A DNA stretch of 54,653 nt, from NCBI GenBank assembly GCA_000806155.1, contig JWKX01000014.1, positions 1 to 54,653 on the forward strand, written 5' to 3'. Shown piece after piece: positions 24,001-27,000 of the stretch (position 1 is its first letter; each line of letters begins with the position of its first letter). The stretch is from an archaeon GW2011_AR18 (GTDB taxonomy: Archaea; Nanobdellota; Nanobdellia; SCGC-AAA011-G17; GW2011-AR18). The position numbers were made by a program.

Positions 24001-27000
24001 TGGCTGTTTTACATTTTCTAGTTTGTATTTTTTTATTGAATCTTTGCTAGTACCAGTACAATATACTTTTGGATTTTTTACTAGTTCTTTCATTCCTATC
24101 CCACCTAATGTGATTATCTCTTTTCCTTTATATTTTTGGAACATATCTAATACTGTTTCACAGAATTCATAGCACCCTCTCTCATCTGATGGTTGTATAT
24201 CGCCTGTTAGTAATAATAATTCTTTATTCTTTGTTTTCTTATGATATATCTCTATTTTAGGCAGTTCAGCTATTCCTTCCTCATTCAAGAATACACAGCT
24301 TGGGAATGTATCTGAATATATCTCATATATTTTATCAGCTTCTAATGTTTGTATTATGAAATCAACTGTTATCTTCCCTACATTTCCCATTCCTGGTAGC
24401 CCTTCTAATAATACTGGGTTGTTTATTTTTTTATCTTTGATTTTCTTTATTGTTAATGTCATTAGTTTATTTTCTTTTAATTATTTATATATCTTTGGTA
24501 GTATTGTTCTGTAGTCCCTGTTCTTTTTTCTTATATTCCAGTCTATACTTTGCATATTTATCTTCTGGACTGTATTTTGCAGGTTTTGTTGTTAAGCATT
24601 CAGAATTGCATTTAGTGCATTTTCTTTCTAATGTGTATATCCTGCATTTAGTGCATCTTAGTATTTGTTCAACCATTCTTCGCATAACTAAATTCTATTG
24701 ATAATCTTTTTGATGATTCCTCTATTTTTTCTATTATCTTTTTCAATAATGTATCTGCTTTTTTTACATCTGTTGATGTTGTTGATATCTTATATTTTGG
24801 AGCCCCTAAGTACATTATCTCTGTTCCCTGTTTTTCTGCATCTGTTAATATATTTCTTACTGTATCTACTCCATTCTCTGCATATGATCTTATATTTAGT
24901 ATATAACTTACTGTTATCTGTATTGGTTTTATTTTTTCTTTTACTACCTTGTATATCTGTTCTGATAGTTTTTCATTTCCTTTCAATTCTGTTACAGCAT
25001 CTTTTCCTTTTTCTAATATTGCATTGAATAGGTTATTTAAGCTTCCATATCTTTCTATTGCTTTTATTCCTATATCTTCATATACTTTTTTTAAATTAAA
25101 ATTTAATTCTTTTCCTATCTGTTCTAGTAACTTTTCTGCCTTTTCCTCTTTCTTATAATCATTTAATTTATTCACCATCTGTGTAGTGCTTACTCTTCTT
25201 AATGATAAGTCTAAATCTCCTTTCTCTGTTATGTTAAGTACTTTGCATACTACTTTTTTCTCCTCTACTACATAATCCCTTATATTCCTTATCCTTCCAG
25301 GAGCTATCTCTGAGATATGTATCATTCCTTCAGCATTCTCATATTCATCTATATTTACAAATACAGAATGGTATAATACCCTCTTTACTGTGCATATGAC
25401 TATCTCATCAATCTCTGGCTTTCCTTTCTTCTTGTAGAACATGTTTTATTGTATTTTCACAATCTTTATAAGTTTTTGTAAATTAGCATTTTTCATGGTA
25501 GAATTAACTATTGAACATTATGATATAATAGATGTAACTCCTGTTAGTTATGTAAATTATCAAAGACCATTACCTAAAGAAGTTTACGCTGAACATCCTA
25601 GAGGTGAATTAAGGAGAGAACTTGAAGAGCATGCTGCTCAAGTAATGATTGATTCTATGAGATCCAGATTAAGGTATTTCAGAGATGATTAGAGTATTAT
25701 TTCTTGGAAAGACTAAGGAAAAATTCATTTCTTCTGGTATTGATGAATATTTTAAAAGACTTAAGAGATTTACTAAATTAGAGATTGTTGAAGTCAAATC
25801 TTTAGATATGGATTATAAAGATGATTTTGTTATGGTTTTTGATATTAATGGTAGATTATATTCTTCAGAAGAGTTAGCTTCTACTATAAAAAATATTGAG
25901 AATAAGAATATAACAATTATTTTAGGTGATGAGAGTGGAATTCCTGAATTAGTTAAGAAAAAAGCTGATTTAATAATATCTTTATCTAGAATGACTTTTA
26001 CTCATGAATTAGCTCGTTTATTAATTATGGAACAATTATACAGGTCTTTTACTATTATTAATAATCTGAAATATCATAAATGATTAATGTAATTTTACTA
26101 GTGCTATATCTTCCCATTTTCCTTCAACTCTTTTAGCTAAGTATACTTCATCTGTAACCCATTCTATTCCCTCAAATGGATTGGTTAATATCCCCTCTTT
26201 AACTTGTTTTAGTCTGCATAATGTTATGTGTGGTGCATATAAATCTCCAGAATATTCTGATCCCCATGTCTGGTATACTCTTACTCTATCTCTATTTTCC
26301 CTATATTGTTGTGGTATTAATTCCAGATTATCTAGAATATCTCTGTCCAAGAATTCTCTGAATGTATTTATCAGGCTGAAATGTATTCTTCTTATATATC
26401 CTGCACTATCTTCTAATCTTGCAACTAATGAGTTTTCATCAAATAATTCTAGTTTTTCTATTCTTGTATTTCTTGCTGGTGATGGTATTATATTTTTGAA
26501 TCCTTTAATTATTTTAGGTGCAGTTTTTTTTCCTTTTATCACATTTGCCAGTTGTCCATAGAAAACAGTACAATGTCCTGTATCAAGTAAGTTTTTAGAA
26601 ACATCATCACCTAGATTTTGTACATAATCTCCTGCTTTATTTAAGAATTCTTCACTTGGTTTGATATAAGCCAGATATTTCATTTAAAAAATTTATGATT
26701 GCGGAAGAACCTCTACATCCTTTGCATGTACTTTGCTCTTTCCCCCAGTTGGTTCAGCTAATACTTCTTCGCATACTAGACATGTTACTTTGTGTGATAC
26801 TGCAGAATATATATTCTGTTCATTTTTGCATTTATGACATCTTACTTTCAAGAATTTTGTTTTTGTTTCCTTTTTTGCTTTCATACGAACTCCACTTTCT
26901 TTGTTCTAAAACCCTGGCTTTGCTGTGTTGCTTTATTGCATACTTTACATGTATATTTGAATGCTGTTTTCTTGCTGATCTTAGCTCCAGTTCTTTTGAA

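Follow-up and report, generated by a model that had tools for sequence, protein, structure and literature searches.

Does a bacterial-type rlmH gene in a nanoarchaeal genome work with an archaeal RNA-guided system to make m3-pseudouridine at position 1915 of 23S rRNA? The question is raised by the genome of archaeon GW2011_AR18 (G000 hereafter; 822 kb, 90% complete), in which the parts are spread over three contigs, with rlmH on C14, a guide RNA on C13 and the helix 69 target on C12. Contig C14, at 54,653 nucleotides, is the window analysed here. An earlier note on this DNA had joined the parts into a hybrid route, in which an archaeal H/ACA guide makes the pseudouridine and RlmH methylates it. 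We predict from sequence that this guide-then-RlmH route to m3-pseudouridine 1915 operates, with a probability of about 0.65, and consider it the best explanation because an H/ACA guide for helix 69 and a complete-looking RlmH are found together, and no RluD is found. For its separate steps, guided formation of pseudouridine 1915 is very likely, and methylation, once that pseudouridine is made, is probable.

The rlmH reading frame (25685-26083, plus strand) is intact and encodes a 132-residue SPOUT methyltransferase of short form, scoring 126.5 bits against PF02590 (cut-off 27) and 119.2 bits in the genome search, the latter in agreement with the 119 bits given before. The protein shares 35-37% identity with the B. 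subtilis structure, and its predicted model (pLDDT 94.7) superposes on B. subtilis YydA/RlmH (1to0_B) with a TM-score of 0.93, the top structural matches being RlmH-family throughout. All nine NCBIfam hits are RlmH models, none of which reaches its cut-off (best 115 against 172 bits), and this shortfall is owing partly to a deletion of about 22 residues in the second helix region. The missing segment includes the place of E. coli K42/R43, proposed as helix 69 binding aids according to PMC5430550, and GGPEG is altered to GDESG. Since proteins as short (138-139 aa) occur among the bacterial sequences of our comparison set (4 of 19), the deletion is no sign of decay.

In the alignment, E. coli H129/E138/R142/Y152/H153/R154 correspond to H107/E116/R120/Y130/H131/K132 of the G000 protein. 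E138, Y152, H153 and R154 are described as essential in E. coli, with lysine replacing R154 in some orthologs (Koh et al., PMC5430550). The enzyme retains every residue known to be essential in E. coli, and looks catalytically complete. Across the order we aligned 23 RlmH sequences, leaving out one partial gene and adding G001; the equivalents of G103, G107, H129, E138, R142 and Y152 are kept in all 23, that of H153 in 20, and the R154 position is K, R or H in every one. Between G000 and G001 the gene has dN 0.089 and dS 0.479 (dN/dS about 0.19), and is under purifying selection.

The gene is found in 7 of 26 family genomes and all three of the genus, as had been stated, and more widely in 23 of 150 genomes of the order (above the cut-off) and in 92 of 401 of the phylum. 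Close homologs of the G000 protein carry a Nanoarchaeota label in public records. A quick tree of 86 rows places the family f1 sequences in one clade (support 97) with deep branches unresolved, and a single origin is neither shown nor excluded by it; rlmH is a patchy add-on, and its origin is probably bacterial. Two Methanosarcinales-titled records (L121 and L129) also carry rlmH, and their genomes match the nanoarchaeal guide model described below (E-values 6e-15 and 0.002); as their labels may be wrong, we did not count them as methanogens.

The earlier note had placed rlmH in an eIF2-alpha/S27e/L44e cluster. It does lie between those genes, aIF2-alpha on one side (24669-25442, minus strand; PF07541 and PRK03987 models) and ribosomal proteins eS27 (26693-26884, minus; PF01667) and L44e (26881-27195, minus; PF00935) on the other, but on the opposite strand, and the arrangement is limited to genus g1 (G000, G001 and G002), the gene being elsewhere in G014, G015, G022 and G024. 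We therefore rejected an operon link with eIF2-alpha/S27e, given the opposite strand and the genus-specific insertion, and the location provides no evidence of co-regulation. Immediately around rlmH are two reading frames of no known family: one of 83 residues called over its start (25441-25692, plus), which has no counterpart of this form in G001 or G002, and one of 199 residues convergent with it (26084-26683, minus), which has a similar frame in G001 and none at that spot in G002. Beyond L44e, positions 27362-27846 hold a DUF7557 frame and a ParE/RelE-family frame, likely a toxin-antitoxin pair, after which comes a type I restriction region. In G015 the guide lies 1.5 kb from rlmH, which was seen in that genome only and judged incidental.

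The guide itself is a single-hairpin RNA at C13:5146-5224 (minus strand) that folds with z = -3.93, terminates in ACA and lies upstream of dnaG; searches of Rfam with E-values up to 5 gave no match over it, in keeping with its first description as an unannotated H/ACA RNA. BLASTN finds 30 loci, all 30 adjoining dnaG and built alike. Some 30 nt upstream of each is a TATA-like box; the RNA itself has a lower stem, then the pocket and an upper stem CUCAA/UUGRG, topped by a K-turn and an apical hairpin, and it closes with a 3' ANA box. In the 30-row alignment the K-turn comprises a 3-nt bulge, a tandem GA and a co-varying two-pair C-stem above CUCAA/UUGRG, and its placement agrees with the K-turn or K-loop expected about 5-6 bp above the pocket (as given in PMC2377435). 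Two-sided changes occur at 8 of the 17 pairs in the lower and upper stems, with 94.8% of cells paired. Slid controls reach 21-43% and none of 500 shuffles scores as high, a test that is, like the guide-target covariation tests below, inflated by kinship among the genomes, as the structure-test tool itself warns. Upper stems proposed by minimum free energy and RNAalifold were dropped for one at columns 23-27/65-69, which has 100% of cells paired and three pair types at one position. We also rejected a reading of the RNA as a reduced 5S rRNA, suggested by a likeness of the stem ends: it has no RF00001 match, and a separate 5S is found at C7:68282-68429. That 5S gene measures 148 nt against a 120-position model, indicating an insertion, and lies apart from the rRNA operon, which is on C12.

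With two stems around an internal pocket, a K-turn, an ANA box and the complementarity described below, the C13 RNA is a predicted archaeal box H/ACA guide. Counts across the order, for the guide as for rlmH, Cbf5 and PF00849, were all taken over 150 genomes. A covariance model (R2; an earlier one, R1, was set aside for wrongly placed apical pairs) finds the guide in 142 of these and in 65 of 151 class genomes, far beyond the 6 of 101 order genomes first reported from matches to its 3' end. It occurs in 21 of 23 genomes with rlmH and in 121 of 127 without; there is no co-occurrence signal, and the guide is independent of rlmH, being the old, near-universal part of the pair. A second, weaker match to the model was found in genus g26 (L213, at G073 C2:99102-99174, and also in G084, G109 and G132), with a K-turn and ANA box and a different 5' pocket.

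We number helix 69 by its loop, using what we take to be the E. coli positions, with U1915 at C12:68729. The guide pairs with C12:68725-68738, on both sides of the 23S helix 69 loop as originally proposed: its GUUA lies opposite U1911-C1914, and in the 5' pocket either AAUCA can pair with U1917-U1921 or GAGAA with U1920-C1924. Both 5' pairings leave U1915 as the first free uridine, 14 nt from the ACA, and the rule for spacing between ACA and target is reported as 14-15 nt (PMC2377435). An ACA 15 nt below the pocket had been described; the ACA end stands, but the distance, taken from the G of GUUA, is 14 nt, and 15 is obtained by counting the variable base before it. Likewise, the claim that pocket bases are kept in G003 and other genomes fails at this variable base, which is G rather than A in G003. 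Guide sequences were read in 109 genomes, 97 by a parser and 12 by hand, and helix 69 was also assembled in 66. The parser is anchored on GUUA, which makes its count of 97 of 97 circular; among the 12 rows outside the parser GUUA is departed from in four (G033, G054, G071 and G145). In the parsed guides the 3' box is ACA in 44, AUA in 39 and AAA in 13, and the distance between pocket and box is 13-16 nt, falling within 14-16 nt in 93 of the 97.

Helix 69 is the sole Watson-Crick site for the guide in the 23S, 16S and 5S rRNAs, though 20.5% of 200 shuffled rRNA sets also give at least one; on its own, complementarity within a single genome gives modest evidence, and the target assignment is carried by covariation between guide and target. 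Where position 1920 is C, the guide has an opposing G in all three genomes, compared to 2 of the 58 scorable genomes with U1920 (from 66 genomes, with five rows unscorable). Among 16 guides ending AAU[C/U]A, G1918 is met by C in 6 of 6 and A1918 by U in 8 of 10; five more G1918 genomes do not have AAUCA. The covarying changes recur across two to four families, C1920 in two and G1918 with AAUCA in three. The register had been thought not to fix 1915 against 1917, but the covariation at 1918 and 1920 makes U1915 the first free uridine. That base is T in all 71 genomic matches. In the most frequent guide form, GAGAAUA (16 nt), four bases stay unpaired. We considered whether the guide has been re-tuned for RlmH, as a U1917-pairing pocket is present in 12 of 22 rlmH-positive genomes and 12 of 87 others, and do not claim it since by lineage about four cases speak for it and seven against.

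Several 23S genes in the set carry inserts near this site. One (L067, G039 C3:54871-55149) carries two inserts, a small one directly within the helix 69 loop and another just downstream; splicing would have to precede pairing with the guide. In L060, L062 and L064, and also L061, L063 and L065, group I intron-like inserts follow U1931. Bacterial-type helix 69 sequences at G137 C23:11-44 and G096 C68:3997-4030 probably belong to contaminating contigs.

Of the proteins needed to use such a guide, we find in G000 Nop10 within the window (24485-24685, minus strand; PF04135, 62.1 bits), L7Ae by genome search (C4:55029-55307, minus) and a partial cbf5 cut by the contig end (C2:1-573, minus). Cbf5 is present in 142 of 150 order genomes. 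The G000 cbf5 is interrupted within its catalytic Asp codon by a 21-nt intron (L075, C2:327-347, minus) with a perfect bulge-helix-bulge, at a position described for Crenarchaeota in PMC2738675; our literature search returned no title reporting a cbf5 intron in DPANN archaea. Inserts lie at the same place in G007, G116 and G032, and many cbf5 matches in the order break at profile position ~70. The gene is full and uninterrupted in G002, of the same genus g1. A search for the splicing endonuclease was negative in G000 and positive in all four relatives. Gar1 was above the cut-off in none of five genomes, searched with a model under which only 2 of 14 controls pass; its part is described as chiefly aiding turnover (PMC6138745). 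Elsewhere in the order, two cbf5 genes (G078 C1:3166-5589 and G141 C7:36672-39089; cbf5 hits L078, L208, L185 and others) have open frames some 820 aa long in which the match breaks in two near position 170, suggesting an intein.

For the bacterial alternative to Cbf5, the RluD model finds nothing in five family genomes (G000, G001, G002, G014 and G015), two of them 100% complete, and G000 has no PF00849 gene. That family is present in 44 of 150 order genomes (L157, L166 and L199-L202), as short RsuA/RluB/RluF-like forms and long RluA-family forms. The four short proteins that we typed are of RsuA/RluB/RluF type and the two long ones, from family f11, are of the RluA family; both family f1 proteins tested are of RsuA/RluF type. 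Thirteen of the 23 rlmH genomes have guide and Cbf5 and no long RluA-family synthase. The long forms occur in 7 of the 23, all in family f11, compared to 11 of 127 others, so a fully bacterial route could be available to these seven.

Put together, the route would run as follows. The TATA box some 30 nt upstream would drive transcription of the guide, L7Ae would bind the K-turn of this RNA, and the cbf5 intron would be spliced out. GUUA would pair with U1911-C1914, and AAUCA with U1917-U1921 (or GAGAA with U1920-C1924), leaving U1915 free, and the guide would direct Cbf5 to make pseudouridine 1915. The bacterial-type RlmH would then methylate N3 to give m3-pseudouridine 1915 without RluD, probably late and on assembled ribosomes as in E. 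coli, and rlmH would in this way exploit a pseudouridine already made by the lineage.

Each part has known counterparts. The E. coli route of RluD then RlmH (RlmH/YbeA; COG1576, PF02590) is alike in fold, in the equivalents of E138/R142/Y152/H153/R154 and in the conserved target base; it differs in that the G000 enzyme has 132 residues where known ones have 155-159, the host is an archaeon, and, no RluD being found, an H/ACA RNP would supply the pseudouridine. Haloferax volcanii sR-h45 stem-loop 2 is also an H/ACA hairpin for the helix 69 equivalents of 1915 and 1917, and is reported to make pseudouridine 1940 and then 1942, the 5'-most first (PMC7075261); these are given as E. coli 1915 and 1917 through yeast numbers (PMC2584109). 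Compared by features, the GAGAAUA guide form leaves the same four bases unpaired as this stem-loop. Unlike sR-h45, the C13 guide stands alone upstream of dnaG as one hairpin with an apical extension, and its G000 variant can pair U1917, with only U1915-A1916 free. Nep1/Emg1 of archaea and eukaryotes is likewise described as a SPOUT enzyme that methylates an rRNA pseudouridine, but at N1 and not N3, in the small subunit and not the large, and as a native enzyme and not a borrowed one. The substrate of eukaryotic Nep1/Emg1 is H/ACA-guided.

Much of this is already in print. Though reviews give RlmH and m3-pseudouridine as bacterial (PMC9508554, PMC7694415), one archaeal COG1576 member, from M. 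maripaludis, was attributed to transfer from bacteria in 2007 (Tkaczuk et al., PMC1829167), bearing out the suspicion in the earlier note that archaeal rlmH might be known. Its account of the mark as one regarded as eubacterial is overstated, as m3-pseudouridine was detected by LC-MS in non-coding RNA of M. maripaludis and Thermococcus sp. AM4 (Tsai et al. 2025, PMC12124282, Table S2). The same study quantifies it in T. kodakarensis and pairs WP_011170981.1 with the mark in Table S5; main Table 1 omits it, the detection comes without site mapping, and a search of the supplement gave no row matched to E. coli RlmH for Thermococcus (PMC12124282). Given that the mark is also reported in Thermococcus, the LC-MS signal cannot be ascribed to RlmH specifically. 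The M. maripaludis protein is likewise an archaeal RlmH, but of full length (159 aa in strain X1), and there the mark is reported as detected, with its site unmapped and no guide named. Archaeal RlmH, archaeal m3-pseudouridine and a guide for 1915/1917 have thus each been published, and the novelty is lower than earlier claimed. What is new is the guide family, its register and the presence of rlmH in 92 of 401 phylum genomes, making this a variant built of known parts. In the literature searched, mostly without subscription papers, we found neither a statement of a guide-then-RlmH route nor a description of the C13 guide family.

We sought traces of the mark in RNA data. Twenty-two metatranscriptome runs were listed, all as contigs, with at most 73% of words in each; four were compared with the target, in a form (contigs) that gives no modification rate. 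In run X9 one contig has T>G exactly at U1915 with a depth of 13.4 of 84.3, the contig being from a relative with no matching DNA run, and the other three runs have no difference at 2% or more. Misincorporation at 1915 has been taken as m3-pseudouridine in chloroplasts, according to a preprint (bioRxiv 2024.06.14.598963), and we regard the T>G contig as a weak hint of this signature at U1915.

The first alternative accepts that the guide makes pseudouridine 1915 but has the short RlmH acting elsewhere, or poorly on archaeal ribosomes. The E. coli enzyme is reported to need a prior pseudouridine and 70S ribosomes, and was modelled to touch the 30S subunit (PMC9508554); by analogy, its fit to an archaeal ribosome may count against the route. 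Additionally, the protein falls below the NCBIfam cut-offs, its deletion spans K42/R43, and the gene is patchy (23 of 150) with no co-occurrence with the guide. We nevertheless judge this unlikely, as the catalytic residues do not vary across the 23 sequences, the gene is under purifying selection, bacteria also have RlmH proteins of this short form, all 71 matches keep U1915, and M. maripaludis has both homolog and nucleoside.

It is also conceivable, though improbable, that RlmH methylates U1915 directly to m3U and that two independent systems converge on one base. Diverse modifications at 1915 across organisms are described in the chloroplast preprint (bioRxiv 2024.06.14.598963), and a reverse-transcription signature would not separate m3U from m3-pseudouridine. 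However, the requirement of E. coli RlmH for pseudouridine (PMC9508554) argues against it; RlmH works on 70S ribosomes, whereas guided pseudouridylation probably takes place early, so the pseudouridine would come first, and the guide is kept in 21 of 23 rlmH genomes.

More doubtful still is a shift of register. Just 5' of GUUA, 77 of the 97 guides have A and 19 have G. These purines, always able to pair with U, could occupy U1915 at a spacing of 15 nt, against the register proposed here, in which case the guide would convert only U1917 and leave RlmH without a substrate. Against this, in G000 and 15 other genomes U1917 is itself paired by the 5' pocket, which co-varies with 1918, the base before GUUA is C in one guide (G005), and the Haloferax guide is reported to modify the 5'-most unpaired uridine first and finally both sites (PMC7075261). 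Finally, an RluD-like bacterial synthase missing from the 90%-complete assembly is a very remote source of the pseudouridine: rlmH genomes of family f11 do have long RluA-family synthases, one scoring equally to RluC and RluD, but none is found in G000, G001, G002, G014 or G015 (the last 100% complete), the two tested family f1 proteins are of another type, and all seven f11 genomes keep the guide.

The guide-then-RlmH route is therefore the reading that we carry forward. If it is true, a bacterial ribosome-finishing enzyme would have joined an archaeal RNA-guided system without RluD, and would recognise the archaeal ribosome. Close relatives with and without rlmH, sharing the same guide and helix 69, would provide a natural comparison for the role of the methyl group, and a site and route would be offered for the unmapped m3-pseudouridine of M. 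maripaludis, a culturable host. The guide family itself provides a near-universal small RNA marker of the order. At its widest, which we hold to be an even bet, about a quarter of Nanoarchaeota (92 of 401) would have a working RlmH and make m3-pseudouridine 1915 by this chimeric route, with a class-wide uncatalogued guide replacing RluD; the mark would then be common and lineage-switchable in DPANN ribosomes, and groundwater metatranscriptomes would show it directly through reverse-transcription errors at U1915.
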